A DNA stretch of 64,000 nt from Patescibacteria group bacterium (GTDB lineage: Bacteria; Patescibacteriota; UBA1384; XYA2-FULL-43-10; 1-14-0-10-43-13), in contig JBAYVE010000001.1 in assembly GCA_041674765.1 (NCBI GenBank), forward strand, positions 2,321 through 66,320. Reading direction: 5' to 3'. Every line of letters begins with the position of its first letter. The first letter of the stretch is position 1. A program made the position numbers and the translations under genes. The notes under the pieces are model-generated. The model was not told where the DNA came from. It did no database searches and saw only the letters and a program-made list of their open reading frames with translations. Of this stretch, positions 15,576 through 63,082 are shown piece by piece.

Positions 15576-15577
15576 CT

Positions 15578-47655: not shown

Positions 47656-48939
47656 ATGGCAAAGGAAAAAGGCAAGGTTGCAATTGTTGGTTTGGGATAC
47701 GTTGGTCTGCCGCTGGCTCTATTGGCCTCAAGAAAGGGATTTGAGGTTGTTGGTATTGATATTAATGAACAAAAGATTTCTCTCTTAAACGAACGCAAAA
47801 TGCCCTTTGTCGATGCAAAATTACAGAAAGAACTTTTGTTGACCAAGGCTAAATTCTATTCGGATATTGAAAAGATCTCCAGCGCAGAAACTATTGTAGT
47901 CTGCGTACCAACACCCGTTTATGACAATTATCTTCCCAATTTGGAACCAGTGAAGGGTGCAATGGATGGAATTGCCAAACAATTGAAGAAAGGGCAGCTG
48001 GTGATACTCGAGTCAACCGTCAACCCGGGTGTTTCCGATGAAGTAGCAATCCCAATTCTTGAGCAGAGCTCCGGTTTGAAGGTGAGCACAGACTTCTATT
48101 TTGCTCATTGTCCTGAGCGGATAAATCCTGGTGACGACAAATGGGATGTAGAAAATATTCCCCGTGTGGTTGGGGGGTCCGATAACCAAGCTTTGAAAAA
48201 GGCAACGACCTTCTACGAAGGGATTCTATCGGGCTCCGTAAAGCCGATGGGTTCTCTAAAAGAAGCAGAGGCCGTGAAAATTGTCGAAAATTCCTTCCGG
48301 GATATCAACATTGCCTTCGTCAATGAACTTGCTCAGTCATTTGCCCATTTGGGAATTGACGTCGTTAATGTCATCGAAGGTGCAGCCACTAAGCCTTTTT
48401 CATTTTTAGCCCATTTCCCTGGCTGTGGCGTTGGCGGCCATTGTATCCCAGTCGACCCGTACTATCTAATCGAATATGCCAAGAAAAATGGTTTCGAACA
48501 TGATTTTCTGCGTTTGGCTAGGAGAATAAACAACCAAATGCCGAGTTATGCCGTCAGCCAGATGGTCGAGGGGCTAAATGAGGCCAATAAATCAATCAAG
48601 GGTTCCGTAATTGCTGTTTTGGGTTTGGCTTATAAGTCGGGGATTGACGACTGCCGTGAGAGTCCCGCTTTCAAAATCATTGAGGAGTTAAAGGGATTGG
48701 GCGCTACTGTCAGGGTTTTTGATCCCTTCGTTATGGCCAAATCTGATGTTCAGAACTTGGATGAGGCTTTATCCGGTGCTACTGCCGTGATGGTCACAAC
48801 CGGCCATAAAATTTTCAAAGATTTGTTGCCTGATGATCTTTCCAAATACAAGATCAAGGTAGTGGTAGACGGACGGAATTGCCTAAATAAGGATAAGTTT
48901 AGAAACTCAAAATTAATTTATAAAGCCATAGGACGGTAA
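47656..48939 (+). CDS. Nucleotide-sugar dehydrogenase (UDP-glucose/GDP-mannose dehydrogenase family; possibly UDP-ManNAc or UDP-GlcNAc dehydrogenase)
   Basis: KVAIVGLGYVGLPLALLASRKGFEVVGIDIN (Rossmann); catalytic Cys region GCGVGGHCIPVDPYYL; TATAAT at 47618 upstream. Confidence 0.85.
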   Translation: MAKEKGKVAIVGLGYVGLPLALLASRKGFEVVGIDINEQKISLLNERKMPFVDAKLQKELLLTKAKFYSDIEKISSAETIVVCVPTPVYDNYLPNLEPVKGAMDGIAKQLKKGQLVILESTVNPGVSDEVAIPILEQSSGLKVSTDFYFAHCPERINPGDDKWDVENIPRVVGGSDNQALKKATTFYEGILSGSVKPMGSLKEAEAVKIVENSFRDINIAFVNELAQSFAHLGIDVVNVIEGAATKPFSFLAHFPGCGVGGHCIPVDPYYLIEYAKKNGFEHDFLRLARRINNQMPSYAVSQMVEGLNEANKSIKGSVIAVLGLAYKSGIDDCRESPAFKIIEELKGLGATVRVFDPFVMAKSDVQNLDEALSGATAVMVTTGHKIFKDLLPDDLSKYKIKVVVDGRNCLNKDKFRNSKLIYKAIGR

Positions 48940-50048
48940 TGTCTGAAGAAGTTCTTTGGAAAAAAATAGAGGGAGGGGTTTTTGTCATCGCCGAAATTGG
49001 CAAGAATTTCATCCAATCCGAAGAAGAGAAACCGGTTTTAGAATATTTGAAAAATGCCAAAAAACTTGCGTTGGCTGCCAAAGAAGCAGGTGCTGATGCT
49101 GTTAAGTTCCAGACCCATAATGTAGAAGATGAACAGATACAAACCAAAGTCGTCTCGCCTCATTTCAAAGGCATGGACCGCTACTCCTGGGTTAAACGCA
49201 ATACACTCGTAACTCCTTTGGAAGGTTTCTGGAAGCCGCTAAAAGCGTATTGTGACCAGATAGGAATCACGTTCTTTTCCACGCCGATGTCTCGTGGGGC
49301 TGCAGAGATTGTGGAGAAAATCGGTGTTGACCTTTGGAAGGTTGGATCAGGCGATATTTTAGACTTTGTCATGCTTGATTATTTGACTCAGACAAAAAAA
49401 CCGATCATTCTCTCAGCCGGAATGTCCACTTTGGAGGAGTTGGACCTTGCTTTGAATTTCCTGAAGAAAAGGAAGTCAAAATTCGCACTTTTGCACTGTG
49501 TTTCCCAATATCCCTGTCCTTTGGAGAAGCTAAATTTGTCGACGCTTGAATATTTCAAAGAGAGATATGAATGCCCGATCGGTTTTTCTGATCATTCGGT
49601 TGGTGAACAGGTGGCTCTTGCCGCAGTCAAGCAAGGCGCCAAAATTATTGAGAAACATTTTTCCTTCGGTCGTGATTTATGGGGCTCTGATCACAAAGTC
49701 TCGATGACACCTAAGGAGATGAAAGAGATGATAGACAAAATCCGTTTGCTGGAGAAGAAAATTTTTGTTGGGACGGACGAACAGTTGATTAAAAAAGCGA
49801 TGGGCAAGAAGGGAAAAATACTGCAGGAGGACGAAGCAGTCTTCCGTCCATTTTTTCGGAAGGCGCTAGTAGCCGGATGTGAGATTAAAAAGGGTGAGAA
49901 AATACAGCCGGAGATGATATATGCGATGAGACCGCAAGCATATATAGCCGGGCTTCACTCTGAAGAATATGAAAAAATAGTCGGTAAAGTTGCCAAAAAA
50001 AAATTTTCCAAATATGAGCCTTTTGATATTGATAGTATTTATAATTGA
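48939..50048 (+). CDS. neuB: NeuB-family nonulosonic acid synthase (N-acetylneuraminate/legionaminate synthase-like) with C-terminal SAF-like region
   Basis: VFVIAEIGKNF...AKEAGADAVKFQTH...; TIM-barrel NeuB signature; ATGA overlap with the upstream gene. Confidence 0.75.
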   Translation: MSEEVLWKKIEGGVFVIAEIGKNFIQSEEEKPVLEYLKNAKKLALAAKEAGADAVKFQTHNVEDEQIQTKVVSPHFKGMDRYSWVKRNTLVTPLEGFWKPLKAYCDQIGITFFSTPMSRGAAEIVEKIGVDLWKVGSGDILDFVMLDYLTQTKKPIILSAGMSTLEELDLALNFLKKRKSKFALLHCVSQYPCPLEKLNLSTLEYFKERYECPIGFSDHSVGEQVALAAVKQGAKIIEKHFSFGRDLWGSDHKVSMTPKEMKEMIDKIRLLEKKIFVGTDEQLIKKAMGKKGKILQEDEAVFRPFFRKALVAGCEIKKGEKIQPEMIYAMRPQAYIAGLHSEEYEKIVGKVAKKKFSKYEPFDIDSIYN

Positions 50049-51394
50049 CGGTTCATTCTATGAGCATTAAAAAACTGTTAGGTGAGATGGTAAAGATATT
50101 CATTAATTTTCTAAGAGTGTTAAAGAGTCATTGGTTTGTAATATTTTTGCTTGCTGTCGGTCTCTTTTATTCATTTTATAGCGCTGTTTTTCTGAAACCT
50201 CATGATGCAGACAATCTAATTGCGCTCTCCTTCGGCTTAAGAAACCCTTCTGAGTTTATTACGGGGTCTTTTACTTCATATTTTCCGGCTTACCGTCCGT
50301 TGGCACAGCTTATTATCTGGTTCCAGTATCAGATTTCAGGCGTAAGCTCTTCAGAGAGTTACTTTGTTATAAATATTCTAATTTGGCTTCTTTGCGCTGT
50401 TTTTGTATATCTGATTGTCCATAATCTAACAAAGCACAAAGTTGCCTCTGCTGCCGCTTCTTTATTACTGTTTCTCGATCAGCGATCTTTCAATTCGATT
50501 ATTTGGATAGGCGAAAGACAGAGTTCGTTAGCTGTTCTATTCGGTTTGGCTGCTTTGTTCGTCAGCCTTCGTACCAATCGATATAACATTGCTCGGATCT
50601 TCTTGATTATGTTTTTATTACTTGCTGCTATGCTGTGCAAAGAATATGGAATTGCTTTTGCCGGCGCAATTGTTCTTATCGCTTTTACTAAGAAAAAAGA
50701 CAAAGGCAAGTTAATCTTGGCCTCAATTCTTTCTGTTGTTATCTATTTCGTGATGCGTTTTGTTATCGCTAGTGGCGGGGGCCTGCGTAATTACTGCGAA
50801 GATATGGGCTATTTTCAAACGGTCGCATATATTTGTTATCAAAATTTGCCGCTGATGGTTGAGATCAAACAGCATATCTATAATACCGGTGCATCGTTCA
50901 TAGGCACCTTTATGCCATTGGCCTTCACCGATAAGGGGCAGATAATTCTATCGCCGGAAATAATTATTCATTATGCCCCGAGCTTTGTTCTGGCGTTGTG
51001 GGTAACTTGTCTTGCTATCTTTGCACTAATAAAGCAACACAAGAAGGCCTTACCCTTTTTGGGTTTAATAATCTTCTGTGCCATCCTAAATTTTATGCTT
51101 TACCGCGGACGCAATCAGTTGGTCGGAGTGACCGGCTTATCGATAATTTTCGGTTTGGGCCTCTCTGGTTTAAAGGTGAAGAAGCAATTAATACCGCTCT
51201 TTTGCTTTGTTATAGTTTTTTTAATACTTTTATTTCCGGGCAGGAGGCTTAGAAATGATATTCTTGAATACACGGCGCTTGAACCCAGCAATACCTACTG
51301 CTTGCAGGAGAGATACCCATTTGATATTAATAGGGATGTGGTTAGCAATTTAAATCAAAAATACAATCTAATATTTAGGGAATGTGATGACTAA
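50045..51394 (+). CDS. Polytopic membrane protein, putative GT-C glycosyltransferase (ArnT/PMT/GtrC-like)
   Basis: About 11 hydrophobic helices; acidic motif HDADN in the first extracytoplasmic loop, as in GT-C enzymes; sits within the glycan locus. Confidence 0.4.
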   Translation: MTVHSMSIKKLLGEMVKIFINFLRVLKSHWFVIFLLAVGLFYSFYSAVFLKPHDADNLIALSFGLRNPSEFITGSFTSYFPAYRPLAQLIIWFQYQISGVSSSESYFVINILIWLLCAVFVYLIVHNLTKHKVASAAASLLLFLDQRSFNSIIWIGERQSSLAVLFGLAALFVSLRTNRYNIARIFLIMFLLLAAMLCKEYGIAFAGAIVLIAFTKKKDKGKLILASILSVVIYFVMRFVIASGGGLRNYCEDMGYFQTVAYICYQNLPLMVEIKQHIYNTGASFIGTFMPLAFTDKGQIILSPEIIIHYAPSFVLALWVTCLAIFALIKQHKKALPFLGLIIFCAILNFMLYRGRNQLVGVTGLSIIFGLGLSGLKVKKQLIPLFCFVIVFLILLFPGRRLRNDILEYTALEPSNTYCLQERYPFDINRDVVSNLNQKYNLIFRECDD

Positions 51395-52166
51395 AAATAC
51401 CAAAGTAGTTATTCTGGCCGGAGGGCTTGGAACAAGGATAAGCGAAGAAACGACCCTAAAACCGAAACCAATGGTAGAGATCGGAGGCAAACCGATCCTC
51501 TGGCATATAATGAAGATCTATTCAGAACAGGGTTTCAATGATTTCATTATTTGCCTTGGCTACAAGGGTTTTTACATCAAAGAATGGTTTAGTCATTACT
51601 ATCTTCATCGGTCTGATGTTACCTTTGATTTTGAAAAGAACCAGACGATATTCCATAATCCCAAATCAGAAGATTGGAAGGTGACTCTAGCCGATACAGG
51701 GGAAGCAACGATGACGGGTGGCAGAATCAAGCGAATCAAGGATTATATTGGCGATAAGACTTTTATGCTGACCTATGGAGACGGGGTCAGCGATGTGGAT
51801 ATAAACAAGTTGCTGAAATTCCACAAAAGAAGCAAAAAGATTGCGACTATGACCTCAGTTATTCCGGAGGGCAGATTTGGTGCCCTGAAACTAATGGGAT
51901 CAAAAGTTAAAAATTTTGCTGAGAAGCACGATAACAAGTCAAGGATCAACGCCGGATTCTTTGTACTAGAACCAGCGATTTTTAACTATATTGAAGGAGA
52001 TGAAACTGTTTTCGAGCAGGAGCCACTGCAAAGGTTAGCGGAGGAAGGGCAGCTGGTAACTTTTAAACACGAAGGTTTCTGGAAGGCGATGGATAGTTTG
52101 TCGGATAAAAATAAATTGGAAGCGATGTGGGAAAACTGCGACGCTCCCTGGAAGACTTGGGAATAA
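51384..52166 (+). CDS. rfbF: Glucose-1-phosphate cytidylyltransferase (RfbF/DdhA)
   Basis: VVILAGGLGTRISEETTLKPKPMVEIGGKPILWHIMKIYSEQGFNDFIICLGYKG is near-identical in pattern to RfbF. Confidence 0.9.
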   Translation: MMTKNTKVVILAGGLGTRISEETTLKPKPMVEIGGKPILWHIMKIYSEQGFNDFIICLGYKGFYIKEWFSHYYLHRSDVTFDFEKNQTIFHNPKSEDWKVTLADTGEATMTGGRIKRIKDYIGDKTFMLTYGDGVSDVDINKLLKFHKRSKKIATMTSVIPEGRFGALKLMGSKVKNFAEKHDNKSRINAGFFVLEPAIFNYIEGDETVFEQEPLQRLAEEGQLVTFKHEGFWKAMDSLSDKNKLEAMWENCDAPWKTWE

Positions 52167-52167
52167 A

Positions 52168-53238
52168 ATGCAGATCACGGAGTTTATAAAAGGCAAAAAG
52201 TTTTTAGTAACAGGACATACCGGTTTTAAAGGGGCTTGGCTGACTAAAATTATTCTTCAGTTCGGCGGAGAGGTCTCAGGTTACGCCCTGGCGCCGAATA
52301 CGTCCCCTTCCCTTTTTGAGGCCTTAGGTTTGAAGTCTCAGATAGAGAATCATTTTGGTGATATTAGAGATCTCGAAAAATTTGATAAAGTAGTAGCTGC
52401 TTACAAGCCTGATGTTATTCTCCATCTTGCTGCTCAACCATTGGTTCGGGCATCTTATGATAAACCGGTTTATACTTTCGAGGCAAATGTTATTGGCACA
52501 GTTAACGTGCTAGAAAGTATCCGCAGAAATAAGATAAAATCCGGTGTCATTATCACGACCGACAAAGTATACAAAAATCTGGAGAAGGATGTTTTATTTA
52601 AAGAAGAAGATGCACTCGGGGGACACGATCCCTATAGTGCCAGCAAGGCTTGCACGGAGATAGTTGCTGATTCGTATATCAAATCATTTTTTTCAACCGA
52701 AAAGTATAAGAAAGATCATGAAACCCTAATAGCTACTGCCCGTGCCGGCAACGTCATTGGCGGGGGAGACTGGGCAGAGGATCGGCTGATTCCAGATGTC
52801 GTACGTTCACTTTTTACCACAAAGGAGACGCTGATCCTGAGAAATCCATCTGCAGTTAGGCCTTGGCAACATGTTTTCGAGTCACTTTATGGTTATCTGC
52901 TATTGGCTTGCCGGCTACACAACGGCGAAAAAAACTTTGTCGGCGCCTGGAATTTCGGCCCTGAAAAAAGTGATATGCTCAAGGTTGAAGAAATCATCAA
53001 GAAGCTTCTTGGAATTCTAGGCAATTATAAAGTCTGCCCTGACCCAGCCAAACCGGAGATGATGCTTTTGAAATTGGACAACAGTCGAGCCAAAGAACTT
53101 TTGAAATGGAAAACTACCTATAACATTGATCAGGCCGTAGAAACGACAGCGGCTTGGTATAGAGCATTTTTTAATGAGAAAAATAAAATAGGAGAATTTT
53201 CCGAGTCACAAATAAAAGAATATTTCCATAATAAATAA
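52168..53238 (+). CDS. rfbG: CDP-glucose 4,6-dehydratase (RfbG/DdhB)
   Basis: FIKGKKFLVTGHTGFKGAWLTKIIL...; YSASKAC; SDR extended family. Confidence 0.9.
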   Translation: MQITEFIKGKKFLVTGHTGFKGAWLTKIILQFGGEVSGYALAPNTSPSLFEALGLKSQIENHFGDIRDLEKFDKVVAAYKPDVILHLAAQPLVRASYDKPVYTFEANVIGTVNVLESIRRNKIKSGVIITTDKVYKNLEKDVLFKEEDALGGHDPYSASKACTEIVADSYIKSFFSTEKYKKDHETLIATARAGNVIGGGDWAEDRLIPDVVRSLFTTKETLILRNPSAVRPWQHVFESLYGYLLLACRLHNGEKNFVGAWNFGPEKSDMLKVEEIIKKLLGILGNYKVCPDPAKPEMMLLKLDNSRAKELLKWKTTYNIDQAVETTAAWYRAFFNEKNKIGEFSESQIKEYFHNK

Positions 53239-53247
53239 AGGTTAGAG

Positions 53248-54540
53248 ATGAAAAAAGATATCAGGAATTTAGTAAAAAAGCATTTCAAGGCTCAATCAAA
53301 TAACGGCGCGATACCTGTCAGCCGGAAGATTTTTGACGAGGAGGAGCTGGGAAATTTGATCGAGGCATCGCTAGAAGGATGGTGGACTGAAGGAAAATGG
53401 GCGGCCCTTTTTGAAGACAAACTGAAAGAGTTCTTGGGTGTGAAGTTTGTCCATGCGGTCAACTCCGGCTCATCAGCCAATTTGCTTGCCTTCTCAGCCC
53501 TTTGTTCGCCATCTTTAGGGGAACGCCAGTTAAAGCCAGGGGATGAGGTAATAACGCTTGCTGCCGGATTTCCAACGACTGTGAATCCGATCATCCAAAA
53601 CAGTTGTATCCCCGTCTTTGTTGATATTGATCTCGCAACGTATGATATTGATGTTTTGGAAATGGAAAAGGCTCTCTCCAAGAAGACAAAGGCAGTAATG
53701 ATCGCACATACACTTGGCAATCCTTTCAATATCAAATCGGTCAAAAAGTTTTGCCGTGAAAATAATCTCTGGCTGATCGAGGATAATTGCGATGCTTTGG
53801 GGTCGGAATACGCTGGTAAAAAAACAGGCACATTTGGTGATATTGCCACTCTTTCCTTCTATCCGGCTCATCATATCACGACCGCTGAGGGTGGCGCAGT
53901 TATCACCAATAACGCGAAACTATCTAAAATTCTTGTTTCTATCAGGGATTGGGGACGTCATTGTTGGTGTAAAACTGGCACTGACAATACCTGCAAAAAC
54001 CGTTTTAGTTGGCAATTAGGTCAGTTGCCAACCGGCTATGATCACAAATATATCTATGGTGAGCTCGGCTACAACCTAAAACTGAGCGATCTTCATGCTG
54101 CGATTGGTGTCGCTCAAATGGATAAATTAGATAATTTTATCAAAAAGAGGCGTGAAAATTTCAATTATTTATCTCAGAAGTTTGCTTCTTTGGACAATTA
54201 TTTTGCTCTTCCGAAGGCGACAAAAAACGCCGATCCTTCTTGGTTCGGCTATCTTTTGAGGATTACTGACGACAGCATTGACCGAGAAGATCTGCTTAGA
54301 TTCTTAGATAGTAAGAAGGTAGGGACCAGGCTACTTTTCGCCGGTAATTTGATTAAACAGCCGTATATTGCCGGAAACAAAGGCATCAAATATCGAAAAG
54401 TTGGGAACTTAAAAAATACTGACATAGTAATGAATAGAGTTTTTTGGATTGGTCTCTGGCCAGGGCTCAGCAAAGAAGAGCTTGATTATGCTGTAAAAAT
54501 GATCAGCGATTTTATAAGGGAAAAAAATGGCAAAAGTTAA
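53248..54540 (+). CDS. rfbH: CDP-6-deoxy-D-xylo-4-hexulose 3-dehydrase E1 (RfbH/DdhC), DegT/DnrJ/EryC1-type
   Basis: DegT family fold; active-site His replacing the PLP-Lys: SFYPAHHITTAEGG is diagnostic of E1; N-terminus like RfbH. Confidence 0.85.
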   Translation: MKKDIRNLVKKHFKAQSNNGAIPVSRKIFDEEELGNLIEASLEGWWTEGKWAALFEDKLKEFLGVKFVHAVNSGSSANLLAFSALCSPSLGERQLKPGDEVITLAAGFPTTVNPIIQNSCIPVFVDIDLATYDIDVLEMEKALSKKTKAVMIAHTLGNPFNIKSVKKFCRENNLWLIEDNCDALGSEYAGKKTGTFGDIATLSFYPAHHITTAEGGAVITNNAKLSKILVSIRDWGRHCWCKTGTDNTCKNRFSWQLGQLPTGYDHKYIYGELGYNLKLSDLHAAIGVAQMDKLDNFIKKRRENFNYLSQKFASLDNYFALPKATKNADPSWFGYLLRITDDSIDREDLLRFLDSKKVGTRLLFAGNLIKQPYIAGNKGIKYRKVGNLKNTDIVMNRVFWIGLWPGLSKEELDYAVKMISDFIREKNGKS

Positions 54541-56290: not shown

Positions 56291-57235
56291 ATGAAAATTT
56301 GTATTTTAGGTGCGTCCAGCCATATTGCTCGAGGATTAGTTTTTAATTTTCTCCAAGAAGGAGAGGATGATCTCTACCTATTTGATAAGGGTATTTATTG
56401 TTTCAATAACTATACTGCCGACTTAAGCTCAAAGAAAGTCAGAAAAATCGGTCTATCGGATAAGTTTGAGTCAGTCAATTTTGACGCTATCATAAATTGT
56501 ATAGGGATTGGTGATCCGGCGAAACTGAAGCAGGCCGGTGGATTTATCTTCGACTTGACGGAAAAATTTGACAACAAGATTTTGAAGTATTTAGAAAAAC
56601 ACAAAAGAACGCTTTATATCAATTTAAGCAGCGGCGCCGTTTTCGGAAAATCTGTGAGCAAACCAATTAACAATTCGACGCTTACAACTCTTGATTTAAA
56701 CAATATCCAACCGGAGGATTATTATTCAATCACAAAAATTAATTGTGAGGCTAAGCACCGAGCACATCCGGATCTTAGAATTATCGATCTTCGTGTTTTC
56801 TCATATTTTAGCCGGTTCATCTCGTTGGAGACTGGTTTTTTCATGACTGATGTCATCAACGCACTTTTGGAGGACAGAGTTTTAGAGACACAAAGTGGTG
56901 ATATGGTTCGAGACTTTATTCATCCGAGTGATTTCTTCGCTTTAGTGAAGAAATGCCTTGCGGCTGATGATATTAATGCAGCCTTCGACGTAGTAAGCAG
57001 AAAGCCGGTCAAAAAGACTGAAATTCTAATACATTTCAAGGACAGGTTCGGTCTAAAGTATAAATTCGTGGATAAAGAAGGTTATATTGAGGCAACTGGT
57101 GCTAAGAATTCTTATTTTTCAAAAAATTTGAAGGCCAAAGAGATTCTTGATTTTATTCCGGAGCATAGCTCGCTTCGAGCTCTCGAAATGGAAACGGAAA
57201 CAATATTATTAGGAGCAAAATGCAAAAGAGATTAA
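56291..57235 (+). CDS. NAD(P)-dependent epimerase/reductase-like Rossmann protein (short-chain family)
   Basis: MKICILGASSHIARGL (GxxGxxG-like); YSITKINCEAK (YxxxK). Confidence 0.5.
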   Translation: MKICILGASSHIARGLVFNFLQEGEDDLYLFDKGIYCFNNYTADLSSKKVRKIGLSDKFESVNFDAIINCIGIGDPAKLKQAGGFIFDLTEKFDNKILKYLEKHKRTLYINLSSGAVFGKSVSKPINNSTLTTLDLNNIQPEDYYSITKINCEAKHRAHPDLRIIDLRVFSYFSRFISLETGFFMTDVINALLEDRVLETQSGDMVRDFIHPSDFFALVKKCLAADDINAAFDVVSRKPVKKTEILIHFKDRFGLKYKFVDKEGYIEATGAKNSYFSKNLKAKEILDFIPEHSSLRALEMETETILLGAKCKRD

Positions 57236-58170
57236 TCTCAATCGTAACTCCCTGTTATTGCGAGGAAAAAAATGTAGTTGAAGTCAGCAAGCGCGTGGCC
57301 AAAGTTTTCAAGATTCTAGATAAATATGAATACGAACATATTTTCATCGATAATTGTTCTCCTGATGGTACCGTGAAGATTCTCAAAGGTCTGGCAGCCC
57401 AAGATAAGCATATTAAACTTATCTTAAATGCCAAAAACTTCGGTCATATCCGTTCACCTTTTTATGGCCTTCTGCAGGCTAAGGGAGATGCAGTCATTTT
57501 GCTAGTTTCTGATCTCCAGGATCCGCCTGAGATGATTATTGATTTGATCAAAAAATGGGAAGAGGGATTCAAGATCGTCATCGGGACTAAAAACAAGAGT
57601 GAAGAGAGTCCTGTCATGTTTGCTCTACGGAAGCTCTATTACGGCATGATTAAAAAGATCTCTGAAACCGAGCATATCAAGAACTTTACCGGTTTTGGTC
57701 TCTACGATCAAAAATTTATTGAGGTTTTGCGCCAACTGGATGATCCTTATCCGTATTTTAGAGGTTTGGTAGCTGAGCTTGGTTTCGAACGGGCAGAAAT
57801 AAACTACACACAACCCAAGAGAAAGAGAGGTAAAACCAACAACAATTTTTATACCCTTTATGATATCGGTATGCTGGGCTTCGTCAATCATTCTAAGGTG
57901 CCGATCAGGATCGCCAGTTTTATCGGATTTTGTGCTGCTATCGCCAGTCTCTTGATCGCAGTCGGTTACTTGATTTACAAGATAATGTTTTGGGATAGAT
58001 TTGATTTGGGAACTGCGCCAATGGTAATCGGCCTCTTCTTTTTCGCCTCCGTCCAACTCTTTTTCATCGGTATCATCGGCGAATATATTGGAGCTATTTT
58101 TACCCAAGTTCGAAATCGGCCCCTAGTAATTGAAAGAGAGAGAGTGAATTTTGATAAAAAAAGTTCCTAG
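57220..58170 (+). CDS. gtrB: GT2 polyprenyl-phosphate glycosyltransferase (GtrB/ArnC/DPM1-like) with C-terminal TM helices
   Basis: ISIVTPCYCEEKNV...IFIDNCSPDGT...VSDLQDPPE (DxD-like); two C-terminal TMs. Confidence 0.8.
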   Translation: MQKRLISIVTPCYCEEKNVVEVSKRVAKVFKILDKYEYEHIFIDNCSPDGTVKILKGLAAQDKHIKLILNAKNFGHIRSPFYGLLQAKGDAVILLVSDLQDPPEMIIDLIKKWEEGFKIVIGTKNKSEESPVMFALRKLYYGMIKKISETEHIKNFTGFGLYDQKFIEVLRQLDDPYPYFRGLVAELGFERAEINYTQPKRKRGKTNNNFYTLYDIGMLGFVNHSKVPIRIASFIGFCAAIASLLIAVGYLIYKIMFWDRFDLGTAPMVIGLFFFASVQLFFIGIIGEYIGAIFTQVRNRPLVIERERVNFDKKSS

Positions 58171-58525
58171 TTCGGAATTTATCCGCTTTGTCCTAGTCGG
58201 CATCTTAAATACTCTCTTTGGTTACAGCATCTTTGCCTTGCTTATCTTTTTGCAGTTAAACTACGCCGCCGCTTTGCTGCTGGCCACTATTATGGGTGTT
58301 TTTTTCAATTTCAAGACGATCGGAAAGTTGGTTTTCAAATCCAGCGATAACAAATTGATTTTCCGGTTTGCCGGAGTTTATACTGTGGCGTACCTTTTGA
58401 ACTTAGGATTAATTTTTGCACTTAGTTTTTGGATCTCAAACCGCTATTTAGAGCAGGCCATACTAGCTTTTCCTGTCGCACTTTTTTCATATTATCTAAA
58501 TAAGCGTCTTGTCTTTGCTCGGTAA
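58151..58525 (+). CDS. gtrA: GtrA-family small membrane protein (second copy)
   Basis: FIRFVLVGILNTLFGYSIFALLIF...NKRLVFAR; overlaps the gtrB stop. Confidence 0.6.
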   Translation: MIKKVPSSEFIRFVLVGILNTLFGYSIFALLIFLQLNYAAALLLATIMGVFFNFKTIGKLVFKSSDNKLIFRFAGVYTVAYLLNLGLIFALSFWISNRYLEQAILAFPVALFSYYLNKRLVFAR

Positions 58526-58599
58526 TTATTAATAATTCGCTCCTCCTCTCTTGTGTGCTAATTATGTGTAATTTTATTGCCCTGATATTTGGCCACGCA

Positions 58600-58627
58600 T
58601 TGACAAAATGACCATAAATGCTATTAT
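58600..58627 (+). promoter_or_regulatory. sigma70-like promoter (TTGACA, 16 nt, TATTAT) at the edge of the GC-rich island
   Basis: Hexamers read directly; followed by hairpin CTCGGC-N12-GCCGAG and SD AGGAGG. Confidence 0.35.
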
Positions 58628-58674
58628 GGGATGTTCTCGGCGACCGAAAACATGCCGAGCGCAGGAGGTGTCCA

Positions 58675-59298
58675 TTGGAAAACATTATCAATGTTATCCG
58701 GCAGGTATTATCCTTGCTGGGGCAAATACCCAACATGGCGATTTGTCAGCAAAGCTCGTATGATCGAGCGATGGAGCTTATCAAAAAGACCGGCGGCTTG
58801 CTGCTCGGTCTAGTCCCCAGAGGTATGCCTCTTGGGACTGAACTGTTTGAGGGCGTTGCCGCCCTTTCCATATCCGTAGCCTACGAAATGGTCGTTTTCC
58901 GAACAGGCCAAGACGGTCGAGTCGAGGTCTATATGACGAAGCGCACGGATGATGACCCGGCTTACCCGGGTGAATGGCACTGTCCGGGGACGGTCAGAAG
59001 GCCTTGGGAATCGCCGGCGGACGCGATCGAGCGCCTGGCGCAACGGGAGTTTGGCGCTCGTATTATCAGCTATAAAATCGTCGGGATGATCGACGATTAT
59101 GCCGAGAAGCGGGGGCATTTCTACACTCCAGTTTGTATCGGCCATCTTGACGGCGAGCCTACCAGCCCTCGAGGGGATTGGTTCCCGGTCGATCAGCTTC
59201 CCGAGAACACGGTCAAGCATCATTCCGTGGGTGTTGTGCCGTGCGCTCTAGAGTGGCGGGATCTTCCGGATATTCCGATCATGGAGATCCGAGCATAA
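58675..59298 (+). CDS. NUDIX-like hydrolase-fold protein (degenerate Nudix box), encoded in a GC-rich island; probable TTG start with perfect SD
   Basis: AGGAGG 6 nt upstream of TTG 58675 (ORF track begins at 58618); ...GRVEVYMTKRTDDDPAYPGEWHCPGTVRRPWESPADAIERLAQREFGA resembles the Nudix fold but departs from GX5EX7REUXEEXGU. Confidence 0.35.
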   Translation: MENIINVIRQVLSLLGQIPNMAICQQSSYDRAMELIKKTGGLLLGLVPRGMPLGTELFEGVAALSISVAYEMVVFRTGQDGRVEVYMTKRTDDDPAYPGEWHCPGTVRRPWESPADAIERLAQREFGARIISYKIVGMIDDYAEKRGHFYTPVCIGHLDGEPTSPRGDWFPVDQLPENTVKHHSVGVVPCALEWRDLPDIPIMEIRA

Positions 59299-59318
59299 CG
59301 CCGGAACATGTGTATGGG

Positions 59319-59347
59319 GGCGGCTGTAAAAGGCTGCCTCTTTTTTT
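59319..59347 (+). terminator. Rho-independent terminator (GGCGGC-tgtaaaag-GCTGCC then TCTTTTTTT)
   Basis: 6-bp stem with one G-U pair plus T7 run immediately after the NUDIX-like gene. Confidence 0.55.
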
Positions 59348-59456
59348 AAACAACCCATCACATGGGGCGTTTGAAGCAAACCTTATCTTCGCTTGAAAAA
59401 AGGGTCGTCTTTCGGTATTCTCTAAATAAGCTTAAAGTTAATCTCTATTTTCACCT

Positions 59457-60614
59457 ATGGCAGAGAAAAGAAAAGTCTGTGTAGTTGTGGCCAGCCGGGC
59501 AAACTACGGACGAGTTAAATATTTGATGAAGGCGGTCAAGGAGCATCCACAACTAGAACTCCAGTTGATTGTTGGGGCCTCTACTTTGCTCTACCGCTTC
59601 GGTAAAGCAGTCGATATTATCAAGAAGGACGGTTTTACGCCTTCGAGAAATCTTTATTATGTCGTTGAAGGTGATACTTTAGCGACGCAATCGAAGTCTG
59701 CAGGGCTTGGTATTCTCGAACTTTCCTCCGCTTTTGAGGATCTGCAGCCCGATGTGATTGTTTCTGTCGCTGATCGTTTTGAGACGATGGCCACGGCTGT
59801 TGCCGCTACCTATCAAAATATTCCATTAGCCCATCTCCAAGGAGGAGAGATTAGCGGAAATATTGATGATCGAGTTCGACATGCCATAACAAAGCTGGCC
59901 GATATCCATTTTGTTGCCAGCGATGAGTCAAGAAATCGTGTTATCAAAATGGGTGAAGACCCAGATTATGTTTTAAATTATGGCTGTCCGGCAATGGACA
60001 TTTTGAAAAACGAAGATCTGGCAATCAGTAATCAAGGCATGGTTCAATATGGCGGGGTCGGATCTAAGGTTGATTGGAGAAAACCTTATGTTCTAATGGT
60101 TCAGCATCCTGTCACTACCTCATACGGCAAGGGCTTCGATCAAGTCAATGAAACTCTTTGCGCGTTGGAAAAATTTCCGGAACTTCAAAAGATTGTACTC
60201 TGGCCGAATATTGATGCCGGCACTGATGATGTATCCAAAGCGATTAGAATATTCCGTGAAAAGCATATGGAGGATAACTTCCATTACTTCCGCAACTTTT
60301 CACCAGAGGATTATGCCCGTGTTCTAAATAATGCTCTCTGCGCTGTCGGCAACTCCAGCAGTTTTATTAGAGAAGCTGCTTATCTTGGCGTTCCTGCCGT
60401 GATTGTTGGCGATCGTCAGAGGGGAAGAGAGCACGGCTCAAATGTTGTCTTTGCTGACTACAATTCAGAGAATATCGGCAAAAATGTCACGAGTCAGTTG
60501 AATCACGGACGTTATAAGAGCGACCAAATCTTTGGCCGGGGCGATGCCGGTAAGAGGATTGCGGATAAATTAGCGACTGTTAAATTTACCGCCATTAAAA
60601 AGATAATGTATTAA
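59457..60614 (+). CDS. neuC: UDP-N-acetylglucosamine 2-epimerase (hydrolysing), NeuC/LegG-type
   Basis: KVCVVVASRANYGRVKYLM...PDVIVSVADRFETMATAVAATYQNIPLAHLQGGEISGNIDD... Confidence 0.8.
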   Translation: MAEKRKVCVVVASRANYGRVKYLMKAVKEHPQLELQLIVGASTLLYRFGKAVDIIKKDGFTPSRNLYYVVEGDTLATQSKSAGLGILELSSAFEDLQPDVIVSVADRFETMATAVAATYQNIPLAHLQGGEISGNIDDRVRHAITKLADIHFVASDESRNRVIKMGEDPDYVLNYGCPAMDILKNEDLAISNQGMVQYGGVGSKVDWRKPYVLMVQHPVTTSYGKGFDQVNETLCALEKFPELQKIVLWPNIDAGTDDVSKAIRIFREKHMEDNFHYFRNFSPEDYARVLNNALCAVGNSSSFIREAAYLGVPAVIVGDRQRGREHGSNVVFADYNSENIGKNVTSQLNHGRYKSDQIFGRGDAGKRIADKLATVKFTAIKKIMY

Positions 60615-60621
60615 GGATTTT

Positions 60622-61473
60622 ATGAAAAAAGGCATGACTGGGGATGAATCCTTATTTGAAAAGAACTGGCAGACTAGAGAAGAGAGCTACTACAATCATT
60701 GGACTAAGGATGAACCAGCCAATCAAATTCAGTTCGCCTTTCGTAACCATTGGGAAGTTTTTCAGGAATTGATGAGGGATAATCATTTTAATAAAGGAAG
60801 ACGCTGCTTAGAAGTGGGCTGTGGGCGAGGCAGTATCTCGGCTTATTTTGCAGATGCGGGATTCGATTGTACCTTGCTTGATGTGTCTCCAGACGTAATA
60901 GAGATTGCCAGAAAAATTTATAAGAAGAATAATTTGAAAGCGAAGTTTGTTGTCGGGGATGCCAACGATCTGCCATTCTCTGAAGGATCGTTTGATATTG
61001 TAGTTTCGATTGGACTTTTGGAACATTTCGAAAATTTTGATAAAACAATTGGCGAACAAGTCAAAATGTTGGCGCCAGGAGGATTATTTCTTGGCTATAT
61101 AGTGCCAAAATATACGGACAATATCCAAAAAGATTATGAATGGATTAACCAGGTACTAAAGGGATATAAAAAGGAAGGTCGCATAGCCTCGAAAGAGGAG
61201 GTCTTCCGCTCAGACACACCCTCGTCAGTTTATTTGAAAGCAATGAAAGCATCGGGCCTAGAGGCATCAAAGTCGAGCGGTATTTATTCTGTTCCAATGA
61301 TTTCTCACTCCATCGATTTCCCTTTTTCTTTAATGCCCGAGGAAAGTGAAAAAGCACTGCTCTTGCATTTTAAAAAGTTATTCGCAGAGAGAAAGAAAAA
61401 ATCTGATAAGCATCCTTGGCTTTGCAAAGAGGGCTTCGGCCAGTCATTTCTAGTTTGGGGATATAAGAAATGA
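60622..61473 (+). CDS. Class I SAM-dependent methyltransferase
   Basis: RCLEVGCGRGSISAYFADAGFDCTLLDVSPDVIEIARK...DLPFSEGSFDIVVSIGLLEHF. Confidence 0.8.
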   Translation: MKKGMTGDESLFEKNWQTREESYYNHWTKDEPANQIQFAFRNHWEVFQELMRDNHFNKGRRCLEVGCGRGSISAYFADAGFDCTLLDVSPDVIEIARKIYKKNNLKAKFVVGDANDLPFSEGSFDIVVSIGLLEHFENFDKTIGEQVKMLAPGGLFLGYIVPKYTDNIQKDYEWINQVLKGYKKEGRIASKEEVFRSDTPSSVYLKAMKASGLEASKSSGIYSVPMISHSIDFPFSLMPEESEKALLLHFKKLFAERKKKSDKHPWLCKEGFGQSFLVWGYKK

Positions 61474-62162
61474 AATATTTGGTCATTATTCCAGCGAGAG
61501 GCGGCTCCAAAGGCATCAAGGATAAAAATATTATTGATGTAAAAGGTAAGCCTCTGATTTGGTACTCTATTAATGCTGCGAATAAGTTAGTATCCGAGGG
61601 CCTGGTGTCGGAAGTTGTTGTCTCTACAGATAATGAAAAGATTGCAGAGATTGCTCGAGAGTGCGGAGGCAATGTGCCTTTTTTGCGTCCGGCCGAGATA
61701 TCGGGAGATAAGGCAAAATCCATTGATTTTGTTCTACACGCTCTAAATTTTTATGAACAGCAGGGCTTGTCTTTCGACGCGGTAATCATCCTTCAACCAA
61801 TAGCTCCACTTCGAACTTTTGAGGATATAAAAGAGGCAGTAATTCTTTTCAATAAGAACAAAGTCGATTCTCTCATATCTGTTTATGAGGAGGAGGGTAT
61901 CGATGATTTGGTCCTTTATTATAGAGACGGGGACAGGGCGGTTCCGCTTAATGCTAATCACAACAATGGAAACCGTCGTCAAGATGCCCCCAAAATTTAT
62001 ATGCGGAATGGAGCCATTTATATTGCTAGGACCGATTTTATTAAGACTGGGCACAAGCTAATCGCCGATCAGCCTTTGATGTTAGAAATGCCAAAAGAGA
62101 GATCTATCAATCTCGATGAACCCAAGGATTTAGAGAAATTGAAAGAAATTTTATGCAAATAG
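61470..62162 (+). CDS. neuA: Acylneuraminate cytidylyltransferase family (CMP-NeuAc/CMP-legionaminate/pseudaminate synthetase)
   Basis: VIIPARGGSKGIKDKNI...KPLIWYSI...VVVSTDNEKIAEIA... Confidence 0.85.
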   Translation: MKYLVIIPARGGSKGIKDKNIIDVKGKPLIWYSINAANKLVSEGLVSEVVVSTDNEKIAEIARECGGNVPFLRPAEISGDKAKSIDFVLHALNFYEQQGLSFDAVIILQPIAPLRTFEDIKEAVILFNKNKVDSLISVYEEEGIDDLVLYYRDGDRAVPLNANHNNGNRRQDAPKIYMRNGAIYIARTDFIKTGHKLIADQPLMLEMPKERSINLDEPKDLEKLKEILCK

Positions 62163-63082
62163 GAATATTAGAAAAAAAGGACTTCAGTCCTGAAGCGTTG
62201 GACATGCTTCGAACTATCGGTGACATTTCTTTGTATTCCGAAGGGGATTTAGGCCAGTTTATTTCAAGTAAAGAAGTGATTTTTATCAGGATCAAGCATT
62301 TTTGGGATAAGGAAATGTTCGCTAAGGCCAAAAGACTTAAATATCTTTGTACTCCAACAACTGGGCTAAATCATATTGACCTTGCCGAGGCAGAGAAAAG
62401 AGGAGTCAAAATTATCTCGCTCAAGGGCGAATATGATTTTACCGGGACTATTGCCGCGACTCCAGAACATACATTCGGCCTAACACTGGCTTTGTTGCGC
62501 AATTATAAAGAAGCCTTTCTGAGTGAAAAAAATAAGGAATGGGATAGAGACCAATATAAGGGTCATGAAATAAAAGACAACAAGGTTGGGATAATCGGTT
62601 TTGGCAGAGTCGGCCGGATGATCGCCGGTTATTTTAAAACCTTCGGAGCAGAGGTTTTTTTCTTTGATGCGGATCAAGAAAAACAACCTTTAAACGGAGA
62701 AACTAAGTGTTTGAGTGTCGGCGAATTGATTTCAGGGTCCAACATTATTATTTTGGCTGCCTCGTACTCGGAAGGCAATAATAAATTCATCGGTAAAAAG
62801 GAATTTGATTTGATGGCTGATAAGTATTTTATCAATACGGCGAGAGGAGAATTGGTAGATGAAGATTATCTGTTGGACCGGATTGAGGCTGGTGCTTTCG
62901 CCGGAGTTGCTGTGGACGTAATTACCCGCGAGAATCACCAAAACAATCTTGAAAGATGGCTTAGCCTTGTAAATAATAGAAATCTGATTATCACCCCTCA
63001 TATCGCCGGCGCAACCTATGAATCTATGGAGAAGACGGAGATATTCGTTGCCAATCAATTAATAAAACAAATTGAAAAATGA
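62153..63082 (+). CDS. D-isomer-specific 2-hydroxyacid dehydrogenase family protein (NAD-binding)
   Basis: VGIIGFGRVGRMIAGYF...; RGELVDEDYL...; IITPHIAGAT. Confidence 0.8.
   Translation: MQIGILEKKDFSPEALDMLRTIGDISLYSEGDLGQFISSKEVIFIRIKHFWDKEMFAKAKRLKYLCTPTTGLNHIDLAEAEKRGVKIISLKGEYDFTGTIAATPEHTFGLTLALLRNYKEAFLSEKNKEWDRDQYKGHEIKDNKVGIIGFGRVGRMIAGYFKTFGAEVFFFDADQEKQPLNGETKCLSVGELISGSNIIILAASYSEGNNKFIGKKEFDLMADKYFINTARGELVDEDYLLDRIEAGAFAGVAVDVITRENHQNNLERWLSLVNNRNLIITPHIAGATYESMEKTEIFVANQLIKQIEK

Follow-up and report, generated by a model that had tools for sequence, protein, structure and literature searches.

The closest described system is the sialic acid pathway, in which NeuC, NeuB and NeuA are encoded at one locus (neu of Escherichia coli K1, SiaA/SiaC/SiaB of Neisseria meningitidis, neuC1/B1/A1 of Campylobacter jejuni). 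The NeuB-family reaction is a condensation of phosphoenolpyruvate (PEP) with a 2-acetamido sugar. The legionaminic acid pathway of C. jejuni and Legionella pneumophila involves LegB-LegC-LegH-LegG-LegI-LegF and PtmE, with LegG, LegI and LegF representing the families of NeuC, NeuB and NeuA, respectively. The pseudaminic acid pathway (PseB, C, H, G, I, F) has no NeuC step. The beta-Kdo transferases KpsC and KpsS (Capsule_synth) belong, as we understand it, to CAZy family GT107; the donor of KpsC is a CMP-activated 2-keto-3-deoxy sugar acid. To our knowledge, a UDP-sugar dehydrogenase is a step of no nonulosonate route, and neither the Neu5Ac pathways nor any other nonulosonate route employ a 2-hydroxyacid dehydrogenase.

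An intact gene set for an activated sialic-acid-like sugar is located on the plus strand of the window, the whole stretch of 64,000 nucleotides analysed here, from an ultra-small member of the Patescibacteria. The genes flagged in an initial sequence-only reading are two halves of a single conserved nonulosonic-acid cassette. The first half (47656-50048) comprises a nucleotide-sugar dehydrogenase and NeuB, the second (59457 to approximately 64548) NeuC, a methyltransferase, NeuA, a D-2-hydroxyacid dehydrogenase and a KpsC-like transferase. Between them lies a 9.4 kb block that carries a CDP-dideoxyhexose route together with a GT2/GtrA pair and a small unit of the NUDIX type. All open reading frames named in that reading were recovered at exactly the coordinates it gave, on the plus strand, and HMM scans confirmed the assigned families (NeuB family, NeuC, CMP-sugar synthetase, dehydrogenase, SAM methyltransferase and D-2-hydroxyacid dehydrogenase). 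The features are:

47656..48939, plus strand: nucleotide-sugar 6-dehydrogenase (three UDPG_MGDP_dh domains; TIGR03026 417 bits, cut-off 190)
48939..50048, plus strand: NeuB-family nonulosonic acid synthase (PF03102 239 bits, SAF 22.5)
50045..51394, plus strand: multi-pass membrane protein of 449 aa with hydrophobic sequence, first gene of the intervening block
51384..57235, plus strand: CDP-dideoxyhexose block of RfbF, RfbG, RfbH (E1), an acetolactate-synthase-like ThDP enzyme and an SDR
57220..58525, plus strand: GT2 polyprenyl-phosphate glycosyltransferase (PgfS/ArnC-like) and GtrA-family small membrane protein
58600..59341, plus strand: small stand-alone unit with a weak NUDIX-domain ORF (58618/58675-59298; NUDIX 29 bits)
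59457..60614, plus strand: hydrolysing NDP-2-acetamido-sugar 2-epimerase, NeuC/LegG class (TIGR03568 366.9 bits, cut-off 235.9)
60622..61473, plus strand: class I SAM-dependent methyltransferase (Methyltransf_11, 84 bits)
61470..62162, plus strand: CMP-nonulosonate synthetase, NeuA/LegF/PseF class (PF02348, CTP_transf_3, 78.8 bits)
62153..63082, plus strand: NAD-dependent D-2-hydroxyacid dehydrogenase, SerA/GhrB-like short form (2-Hacid_dh_C 134 bits)
63079..64000, plus strand: KpsC/KpsS-like (Capsule_synth) protein, N-terminal 307 codons (PF05159 26.4 bits, cut-off 20)

At five junctions, start and stop codons either overlap or are no more than 7 nt apart: dehydrogenase/NeuB (stop codon over NeuB start), NeuC/methyltransferase, methyltransferase/NeuA (4 nt overlap with the NeuA start, the methyltransferase sitting between NeuC and NeuA), NeuA/2-hydroxyacid dehydrogenase and 2-hydroxyacid dehydrogenase/KpsC-like gene (ATGA). 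The gene for the 2-hydroxyacid dehydrogenase thus shares nucleotides with its neighbours on both sides.

As in the sialic acid pathway, the same three families occur at one locus and no aminotransferase is needed. Unlike in that pathway, the NeuB found here misses the NeuB equivalog cut-off and constitutes a clade of its own, the conserved partners are a methyltransferase, a D-2-hydroxyacid dehydrogenase and a KpsC-like protein, and the locus is here interrupted by another sugar pathway. Family scans revealed neither NeuD, NeuE or NeuS nor a sialyltransferase of the GT38, GT42, GT52 or GT80 type. Overall, we favour with moderate confidence a split conserved cassette with a neuraminic-type NeuC-NeuB-NeuA route, tailoring and a KpsC-like transfer. 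In this scheme, NeuC would hydrolyse and 2-epimerise its presumed substrate UDP-GlcNAc to ManNAc, which the CPR-type NeuB would condense with PEP to a neuraminic-type (5-acetamido) nonulosonate. NeuA would activate the product with CTP. The methyltransferase, and in some manner the 2-hydroxyacid dehydrogenase, would tailor the sugar, and the HP-motif KpsC-like protein would transfer it onto a surface glycan as the putative acceptor. As product, a methylated neuraminic-type CMP-nonulosonate is most likely; both its neuraminic type and its methylation are predictions. The sugar might serve host mimicry or the glycosylation of pilin or S-layer, as the initial reading suggested.

A metagenome search anchored on the methyltransferase alone yielded 63 loci, with flanks covering 6 kb. 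The 63 homologues were full or near-full length with 42-65% identity; one short fragment reached 71%. NeuC was located directly upstream in 35 and NeuA directly downstream in 36 of the 63 loci; in total, NeuA was present in 55, the 2-hydroxyacid dehydrogenase in 47, NeuC in 44 and NeuB in 35. The exact order NeuB-NeuC-methyltransferase-NeuA-2-hydroxyacid dehydrogenase was found in 19 loci, and in five more with the last two genes swapped. This order, with an optional dehydrogenase in front of NeuB and an optional KpsC-like transferase at the end, appears on dozens of independent contigs from metagenomes. The methyltransferase and the 2-hydroxyacid dehydrogenase are therefore more than neighbours by chance. 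The proposal that both are tied to the nonulosonate route gains support from this ordered co-occurrence with NeuC, NeuB and NeuA, and the methyltransferase is a candidate tailoring enzyme. Synechococcus and Accumulibacter share the order NeuA-2-hydroxyacid dehydrogenase-NeuB-NeuC-CapSyn-like-RfbF. The Synechococcus locus goes on to RfbG, and the Accumulibacter contig stops inside rfbF. The 2-hydroxyacid dehydrogenases adjoining NeuA in these two are 45-49% identical to the one in the window. Five of six NeuB relatives with usable flanks (L004-L008) carry NeuC and NeuA beside NeuB; in L004, L005 and L008 the 2-hydroxyacid dehydrogenase and the methyltransferase adjoin each other. Locus L080 has NeuC, NeuA and an RmlB-like SDR, and its contig stops just past NeuB.

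Homologues of this NeuB type number more than 100, with identities of 60-67%, and those with a source name are all from CPR or unclassified bacteria; genes of this kind are not a rarity among ultra-small bacteria. Sialic acid genes in CPR were mentioned in passing in 2016 (PMC4736985). The cassette is widespread yet unstudied, and the methyltransferase and 2-hydroxyacid dehydrogenase recur as its partners.

The NeuB ORF does not group with KDO-8-P/DAHP synthases; its score on DAHP-synthase models is no higher than about 30 bits. SDH and EKH, the motifs with the metal-binding His residues, align with the NeuB of N. meningitidis (1xuu). It stays below both equivalog cut-offs (NeuB model 271, cut-off 399.65; PseI model 212, cut-off 340). 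Identity amounts to 62-65% with CPR homologues versus 30-38% with non-CPR cassettes. The CPR-type clade has a neighbor-joining bootstrap of 100/100, and its deep placement is divided between the Neu group (47) and the Pse/SpsE group (41). NeuC passes the hydrolysing model and fails the non-hydrolysing WecB model (65.8, cut-off 210). It scores an equal 207 bits against LegG (5xvs) and human GNE (4zht), so its sequence cannot tell a neuraminic from a legionaminic substrate. NeuA reaches 140.6 on the PseF model, below the cut-off of 205.7, with the CMP-Neu5Ac synthetase 6ifd as best solved relative (127 bits).

The equal scores of NeuC are compatible with a legionaminic route, in which LegG, LegI and LegF from the window would act together with a downstream LegB and nucleotidyltransferase and with LegC and LegH from another part of the genome, yielding a CMP-legionaminic derivative, possibly methylated. 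The nearest solved relative of NeuB is SpsE from Bacillus subtilis (149 bits), an enzyme that we take to be assigned to this route, and one JGI homologue of NeuB carries the name N,N'-diacetyllegionaminate synthase. The sequence-only reading had noted that no PseB/PseC or LegB/LegC pair was visible. This is correct inside the window; farther along the contig, PseB and PseC follow 5.3-7.5 kb past the window end, and a LegB-like dehydratase 18 kb downstream lies just over the TIGR04180 cut-off (509, cut-off 475). As in the legionaminic pathway, LegB is accompanied by a nucleotidyltransferase, a 231-aa sugar-1-phosphate enzyme directly after it. An SDR also follows, and this arrangement matches a simple 6-deoxy-HexNAc route. 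Unlike in the legionaminic pathway, LegB does not adjoin the cassette but lies on the far side of the pseudaminic cluster, and neither a LegC-type aminotransferase (TIGR04181) nor LegH or another hexapeptide N-acetyltransferase was found in 92.5 kb of contig. The related cassettes agree: no LegB/LegC/LegH set, and no homologue of LegB or LegH, was found in Synechococcus and Accumulibacter (flanks of 6-10 kb), and L004-L008 have no LegB/LegC pair or hexapeptide acetyltransferase within 10 kb on either side of NeuB; only L006 has a DegT-type gene, an unrelated one at a distance of about 8 kb. A DegT-type aminotransferase occurred within 6 kb in only one of the 63 methyltransferase-anchored loci. 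A legionaminic product is thus considered unlikely.

The nucleotide-sugar dehydrogenase probably acts on a UDP-HexNAc. It stays below the equivalog cut-offs for archaeal UDP-ManNAc dehydrogenase (323, cut-off 750) and TviB (258, cut-off 592), and shares 48% identity with its counterpart in L006, which immediately precedes the CPR-type NeuB there. It adjoins NeuB in 12 of the 35 metagenome loci that show NeuB, was seen in 15 of the 63 loci overall, and was not seen in the Synechococcus and Accumulibacter cassettes. The enzyme often accompanies the cassette on its upstream side but is not an obligatory part of it. Of the minimal route first proposed, NeuC, NeuB and NeuA remain as a credible path to a CMP-activated nonulosonic acid; the UDP-sugar dehydrogenase drops out as a step. 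The D-2-hydroxyacid dehydrogenase has phosphoglycerate dehydrogenase and glyoxylate reductase as nearest PDB relatives. Its translation contains TARG, VDV and TPHIAG, presumably the Arg, acidic and His catalytic positions of the family. Since no Neu5Ac pathway known to us includes such an enzyme, the neuraminic-type scheme leaves one conserved gene unexplained. Both dehydrogenases could find a function if a modified precursor entered NeuC and NeuB, either UDP-GlcNAcA from the nucleotide-sugar dehydrogenase or an NDP-6-deoxy-HexNAc from the LegB-like enzyme and a reductase. A 9-carboxy or 9-deoxy neuraminic-type acid would result, with the 2-hydroxyacid dehydrogenase and the methyltransferase acting on the product, e.g. 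at an alpha-hydroxy-acid end or by methyl esterification. The overlap of the dehydrogenase with NeuB, the deep separate clade of NeuB below all equivalog cut-offs, and the presence of LegB, nucleotidyltransferase and SDR with no aminotransferase are consistent with such a backbone. We nevertheless regard it as decidedly improbable: the dehydrogenase is missing from most loci, the whole pseudaminic cluster stands between LegB and the cassette, the proposal derives purely from gene neighbourhood, and we know of no biochemical precedent.

The cassette looks chimeric by sequence identity, combining a CPR-lineage NeuB with a NeuC nearest to non-CPR bacteria (72-73% identity with Accumulibacter and Synechococcus versus 39-40% with CPR NeuCs). 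For NeuA and the 2-hydroxyacid dehydrogenase, the Synechococcus and Accumulibacter versions are somewhat closer than those of CPR-relative loci. The same contig carries, 5-14 kb beyond the window, a complete pseudaminic acid cluster as a separate module, with PseB, PseC, PseF and PseI all above the equivalog cut-offs (PseI 507, cut-off 340; PseF 280, cut-off 206). The split, the relatives of NeuC (less clearly of NeuA and the 2-hydroxyacid dehydrogenase) in other phyla and this nearby cluster might suggest that the window genes are redundant or decaying leftovers and the pseudaminic cluster the sole working route. That is very improbable, as all seven cassette ORFs are full length and tightly packed, the checked motifs are intact, and the same genes stay together in many genomes. 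The pseudaminic route uses no NeuC-type enzyme and has its own synthase and cytidylyltransferase, PseI and PseF. The window genes therefore do not fill a gap in it, and the organism has two nonulosonate routes.

The last gene of the favoured neuraminic-type cassette encodes 489 aa in full and extends to position 64548 on the contig (L001/L002). A profile of 12 cassette homologues matches the solved beta-Kdo transferase KpsC (8fuw, 6mgc; E=1.5e-8) across the invariant HP-motif region around VKEHP; H299, E303, K336, H338 and P339 are invariant. The motif supports a CMP-ulosonate-dependent transferase, and the protein is a candidate CMP-nonulosonate glycosyltransferase on these grounds. Unlike KpsC, it is similar over approximately 70-100 residues only, while the N-terminal 300 residues match nothing. 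No kps export genes were found near the gene.

The cassette is one module within a surface-glycan island of approximately 40 kb (window-equivalent 47.0-87.7 kb), which also contains the complete pseudaminic acid cluster and the LegB-like dehydratase/nucleotidyltransferase pair. The dideoxyhexose genes between the two halves, already suspected from the sequence, are real: RfbF, RfbG and RfbH each exceed their equivalog cut-offs (TIGR02623 396, cut-off 300; TIGR02622 441, cut-off 278; NF011936 670, cut-off 423). All three TPP domains are present in the ThDP enzyme, which misses the ALS cut-off (494, cut-off 538). The block presumably resembles the yersiniose (YerE/YerF) branched-sugar route. Pfam and NCBIfam scans gave no match for the 449-aa membrane protein, which may be a GT-C-like partner of the GT2/GtrA pair (PF00535 85 bits; PgfS 174 bits, under the cut-off; PF04138 60 bits). 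The NUDIX unit is flanked by the best promoter-like site of the region (58600-58627; 11/12 match plus TG extension) and, 3' of its ORF, by a terminator-like hairpin with a T-run (59316-59341). The G+C content is 0.466 in 58-60 kb, compared with about 0.41 nearby.

The sialic-acid-type genes of the window form a cassette in two parts. The open reading frames proposed by the sequence-only reading are all present on the + strand with exactly the coordinates it had assigned, and HMM assignment by Pfam and TIGRFAM scores upheld their family labels.

Nonulosonate genes of the window
47656-48939, + strand, three-domain nucleotide-sugar dehydrogenase (TIGR03026, 417 bits)
48939-50048, + strand, NeuB-family synthase (PF03102, 239.3 bits, cut-off 22.1, residues 46-274)
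59457-60614, + strand, hydrolysing 2-epimerase NeuC (TIGR03568, 366.9 bits, cut-off 235.9; TIGR00236 WecB, 65.8 bits, below the cut-off of 210.15)
60622-61473, + strand, class I SAM methyltransferase (Methyltransf_11, 84 bits)
61470-62162, + strand, CTP_transf_3 cytidylyltransferase NeuA (PF02348, 78.8 bits, cut-off 22.6)
62153-63082, + strand, D-2-hydroxyacid dehydrogenase, 2HADH (2-Hacid_dh_C, 134 bits)

The grouping that would have spoken against these labels is absent: NeuB reaches only about 30 bits with DAHP-synthase models, and NeuC yields 366.9 bits versus 65.8 bits with WecB. The C-terminal SAF domain of NeuB (PF08666) scores 22.5 bits at a cut-off of 21. The nucleotide-sugar dehydrogenase passes no equivalog cut-off, the best models being the archaeal UDP-ManNAc dehydrogenase (323 bits, cut-off 750) and TviB (258 bits, cut-off 592). 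Directly after the 2HADH follows a Capsule_synth-like protein of 489 amino acids, its ATG overlapping the 2HADH stop codon. Decay of the genes is a highly improbable explanation of the arrangement, since all cassette ORFs are intact and closely packed.

NeuB remains below the NeuB_NnaB equivalog cut-off (TIGR03569, 271.1 bits, cut-off 399.65) and below that of the PseI model (211.6 bits, cut-off 340.25). On these scores it is classed as a NeuB family member, but is assigned to neither the NeuB nor the PseI equivalog. The histidines of its SDH and EKH motifs, presumably the two metal ligands, align with the matching histidines of Neisseria meningitidis NeuB (1xuu). Solved structures are about equidistant: Bacillus subtilis SpsE (149 bits), N. 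meningitidis NeuB (137 bits) and Campylobacter jejuni PseI (123 bits). More than 100 homologues share 60-67% identity with the window protein. Those with a named source all belong to CPR, i.e. Patescibacteria-type ultra-small bacteria (Parcubacteria, Sungbacteria, "Patescibacteria group"), or to unclassified bacteria. NCBI labels them no more specifically than "N-acetylneuraminate synthase family protein", in line with an equivalog score below threshold. A passing mention of sialic acid genes in CPR, for Peregrinibacteria, dates from 2016 (PMC4736985). Together with the abundance of CPR-type NeuB homologues, this makes such genes in an ultra-small bacterium less surprising than first supposed. 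A neighbor-joining tree was calculated for 50 NeuB-like sequences, among them N. meningitidis NeuB, B. subtilis SpsE and the PseI encoded on the contig. The CPR-type NeuB clade received a bootstrap of 100/100 and takes in the synthases of three canonical metagenome cassettes (L017, L037 and L039; being a near-duplicate, L039 did not enter the bootstrap). The deep placement of the clade is divided between the Neu group (bootstrap 47) and the Pse/SpsE group (41), so the type of sugar is not told by the NeuB sequence alone.

All three core enzymes fall into the well-known bacterial families of sialic and legionaminic acid synthesis; NeuC passes its equivalog cut-off, whereas the NeuB and PseF equivalogs are not reached. 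NeuA scores 140.6 bits with the PseF model (TIGR03584, cut-off 205.7), and its best PDB relative is the CMP-Neu5Ac synthetase 6ifd (127 bits). Typing of NeuC by its solved relatives was abandoned, as LegG (5xvs) and human GNE (4zht) give 207 bits each. Gene context alone, i.e. a cassette without an aminotransferase, favours UDP-GlcNAc over UDP/GDP-diNAcBac as NeuC substrate.

Six neighbourhoods of CPR NeuB homologues with usable flanks (L004 to L008 and L080, ±10 kb) were examined. NeuC and NeuA adjoin NeuB in L004 to L008. In L004, L005 and L008, a 2HADH gene and a Methyltransf_23 gene lie adjacent to each other near NeuB, and a TagF-like (Glyphos_transf) protein is also encoded. L006 carries a nucleotide-sugar dehydrogenase directly 5′ of NeuB, as does the window, and a single unrelated DegT-type gene about 8 kb from NeuB. 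L080 contains NeuC, NeuA and an RmlB-like SDR, and its contig stops just past NeuB. The idea of a 9-deoxy sugar, prompted by L080, gains no real backing from this locus, whose dehydratase looks RmlB-like and is only 31% identical to the LegB of the contig. A LegB/LegC pair or a hexapeptide acetyltransferase was found in none of the six neighbourhoods within ±10 kb. Identities between the window and these relatives are 62-65% for NeuB, 39-40% for NeuC, 30-40% for NeuA and 31-35% for the 2HADH. Similarity of the window methyltransferase to the CPR Methyltransf_23 genes is restricted to the generic SAM fold, and homology was discarded.

A metagenome scan anchored on the window methyltransferase alone yielded 63 loci; the full or near-full-length matches among them share 42-65% identity with it. 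Neighbouring ORFs were labelled by BLASTP against the proteins of the contig.

Cassette genes at the 63 methyltransferase-anchored loci (lower bounds, many loci being short)
NeuA: 55
2HADH: 47
NeuC: 44
NeuB: 35
Nucleotide-sugar dehydrogenase: 15
Capsule_synth-like protein: 10
DegT aminotransferase: 1
Exact order NeuB-NeuC-methyltransferase-NeuA-2HADH: 19
Order NeuB-NeuC-methyltransferase, NeuA and 2HADH swapped: 5
Dehydrogenase immediately 5′ of NeuB: 12

Further repeated partners are Methyltransf_23 (14 loci), a fused ABC exporter (8), a polysaccharide deacetylase (7) and a hexapeptide acetyltransferase (5). The nearest cassette, L017, is unbroken and shares 54% (NeuB), 69% (NeuC), 61% (methyltransferase), 56% (NeuA) and 52% (2HADH) identity with the window. 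The window thus represents a cassette of known order that is split between NeuB and NeuC by a 9.4-kb block.

Genes between the cassette halves encode a 449-aa membrane protein without a family match, RfbF, RfbG, RfbH, a ThDP enzyme, an SDR, a GT2 glycosyltransferase, a GtrA-family protein and a NUDIX protein. RfbF, RfbG and RfbH each pass their own equivalog cut-off. The ThDP enzyme is acetolactate-synthase-like (494 bits, ALS cut-off 538) and is followed by the SDR (51384-57235). The combination resembles a pathway of the yersiniose type, where a YerE-like enzyme attaches a branch of two carbons to a CDP-3,6-dideoxy-4-ketohexose. Family scans of the block 51384-57235 revealed no E3 partner for RfbH of the RfbI/AscD iron-sulfur reductase type. 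The GT2 is of the PgfS/ArnC type, with the GtrA-family protein alongside. In total, two GtrA-family proteins, this GT2 and the multi-pass 449-aa protein are encoded at 47022-47447, 50045-51394 and 57220-58525. The set appears to resemble a GtrA/GtrB/GT-C system, which decorates a surface polymer outside the membrane via a polyprenyl-phosphate sugar. A weak, G+C-richer NUDIX ORF stands alone exactly between the cassette halves (58600-59341). In consensus scans, i.e. as pattern matches only, it is bracketed by the region's best promoter-like site (58600-58627, 11/12 plus a TG extension) and a terminator-like hairpin with T-run (59316-59341); a weaker promoter-like site precedes NeuC. These scans would fit two or three transcription units, and the NUDIX unit may be a separate insertion.

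The closest relatives of NeuC in a scan of species-representative genomes lie outside CPR: Accumulibacter (73% identity), Synechococcus (72%), a gammaproteobacterial MAG (69%) and Agarivorans (65%), as compared to 40% for a Patescibacteria MAG. Synechococcus and Accumulibacter share the order NeuA (46%)-2HADH (45-49%)-NeuB (33-38%)-NeuC-Capsule_synth-like protein-RfbF (56-60%). The cassette of Synechococcus is followed by rfbF and then RfbG (43%) (L010:11150-14543); in Accumulibacter, rfbF lies directly after the cassette and the contig stops within it (L009:9112-11345). The link between the cassette and CDP-hexose genes therefore spans phyla and extends beyond this window. No LegB or LegH homologue occurs in either neighbourhood. 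New here are the conserved cassette with methyltransferase and 2HADH (plus the KpsC-like protein), its split form and its mixed ancestry. Literature searches found neither a paper linking nonulosonic acids with Patescibacteria nor a description of a 2HADH or this methyltransferase within a nonulosonate cluster.

The contig (ENA ERZ27247358, k141_2245327, 365,533 bp; record coordinate = window + 2341) was read to window-equivalent position 92,574. Past the Capsule_synth-like protein follow a 388-aa protein without assigned function, a 798-aa CBM_4_9 protein and a second 2HADH. The absence of PseB/PseC from the window, noted in the sequence-only reading, holds for the window itself, while the pair is encoded past its end (PseB 532 bits, cut-off 408; PseC 503 bits, cut-off 423). 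Both precede PseF (280 bits, cut-off 206). Next are an aldo-keto reductase, a second cytidylyltransferase-like protein, a class-III aminotransferase (glutamate-1-semialdehyde-aminomutase-like), a 425-aa fusion with a weakly PseH-like C-terminus (40 bits, cut-off 93) and PseI (507 bits, cut-off 340). PseG was not identified in this cluster. A pseudaminic acid cluster predicted to be complete, with its own synthase and cytidylyltransferase, thus occupies positions 6825-16015 of the downstream segment L002 (window-equivalent about 68.3-77.5 kb). The extra genes between PseF and the PseH-like fusion suggest a non-standard N-acyl group on the pseudaminic acid. The window genes were rejected as missing parts of this route, because the cluster already includes a PseI and a PseF, and the pathway lacks a NeuC step. 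A Wzx flippase and a 332-aa protein without assigned function follow PseI.

Further downstream, a LegB-like dehydratase (L002:18437-19435, window-equivalent 79925-80923) just passes its model (TIGR04180, 508.7 bits, cut-off 475). It is followed by a 231-aa sugar-1-phosphate nucleotidyltransferase and a 314-aa SDR (L002:18437-20750 and, in the next segment, L003:10001-10945; window-equivalent 79.9-82.6 kb). A legionaminic-type route, in which the window genes would act like LegG, LegI and LegF, and LegC and LegH would be encoded elsewhere in the genome, gains from the LegB-like and nucleotidyltransferase genes 18 kb away and from the equal scores of NeuC with the solved LegG and GNE. It is nevertheless unlikely, as two defining enzymes are not found: the 92.5 kb of contig contain no LegC-type aminotransferase (TIGR04181) and no hexapeptide N-acetyltransferase of the LegH/NeuD type. 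The only DegT proteins in this range are RfbH (670 bits, own model) and PseC (503 bits, own model; LegC 231 bits, cut-off 420). LegC or LegH in the first 47 kb of the window was likewise rejected, this part carrying dnaA, dnaN, recF, pilus, secretion and cell-wall genes. LegB, nucleotidyltransferase and SDR without an aminotransferase could rather constitute a route to a 6-deoxy-HexNAc (QuiNAc/FucNAc-type). A novel backbone, arising if the dehydrogenase or the LegB-like enzyme fed a modified precursor to NeuC, is quite improbable. Downstream of the SDR, minus-strand glycosyltransferases and SAM-cycle genes were observed. The latter, a SAM synthetase, a PfkB-family kinase and an S-adenosylhomocysteine hydrolase immediately past the end of the glycan island (L003:16409-19786, window-equivalent about 88.0-91.4 kb), fit a high methylation demand.

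We lean, with some reserve, towards a neuraminic-type CMP-nonulosonate. NeuC would turn UDP-GlcNAc into ManNAc, the CPR-type NeuB would condense it with PEP to a neuraminic-type acid, and NeuA would yield the CMP-sugar. Methyltransferase and 2HADH would tailor the sugar, and the KpsC-like protein would transfer it. The neuraminic type is preferred because the cassette is without a sugar aminotransferase in 62 of the 63 loci, in the two non-CPR genomes (cultured/binned) and in most CPR relatives. The KpsC-like protein scores 26.4 bits with PF05159 Capsule_synth (cut-off 20). A profile of 12 cassette homologues matched the solved beta-Kdo transferase KpsC (8fuw/6mgc) with E=1.5e-8 over the VKEHP stretch in the C-terminal Rossmann-like half. 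H299, E303, K336, H338 and P339 are invariant in the 12 homologues. KpsC uses CMP-Kdo, and an HP motif occurs in sialyltransferases as well, which makes CMP-nonulosonate transferase the most plausible, still putative, role of the 489-aa protein. The translated 2HADH contains the motifs TARG, VDV and TPHIAG, at what we take to be the expected sites of the catalytic Arg, acidic and His residues of the family. The enzyme is most closely related to phosphoglycerate dehydrogenases and glyoxylate reductases. Every model leaves the role of the 2HADH unexplained. Conceivable functions are the supply of a hydroxy-acid substituent (glycerate, lactate or glycolate), oxidation or reduction of the sugar acid, or epimerization via a keto intermediate.

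On cell-surface glycans, nonulosonic acids form the caps and influence how hosts, phages and immune systems recognise a cell. Many unrelated environmental bacteria have the methyltransferase and the 2HADH together with NeuB, NeuC and NeuA, which probably indicates a modified sialic acid. More tentatively, and with rather low confidence, the five-gene core (NeuB, NeuC, NeuA, 2HADH and methyltransferase), often with the KpsC-like protein, may make a structurally undescribed sialic-acid derivative that would be widespread among marine and freshwater bacteria; Patescibacteria would have gained part of the pathway horizontally and would show the sugar on their surface. Candidates are O-methylated, side-chain oxidised or hydroxy-acid-substituted forms. 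If so, no known nonulosonate pathway would contain a step that matches that of the 2HADH. Patescibacteria are attached to other microbes, and their biosynthetic genes are very few. That this bacterium nevertheless gives about 40 kb beside its replication genes to rare sugars, with two nonulosonate routes, points to a large investment in the cell surface.

Several observations concern the upstream part of the window. A 253-aa ORF (46090-46851, - strand), which borders the glycan island on its upstream side, combines an N-terminal Phd/YefM antitoxin domain with about 180 residues without assigned function. A 2847-aa ORF (16174-24717, - strand) is followed by large same-strand ORFs whose family matches are weak or lacking; one shows a faint TrbL/VirB6 match. 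Upstream of the 2847-aa ORF, a T4SS-pilin-like protein (3470-5968) and a T2SSE/PilB ATPase (6677-8314) are encoded. The genes dnaA-dnaN-recF are located at 11474-15575; however, the cumulative GC skew minimum and a switch in gene orientation lie near 38-42 kb, beside a tyrosine recombinase (39983-41032).
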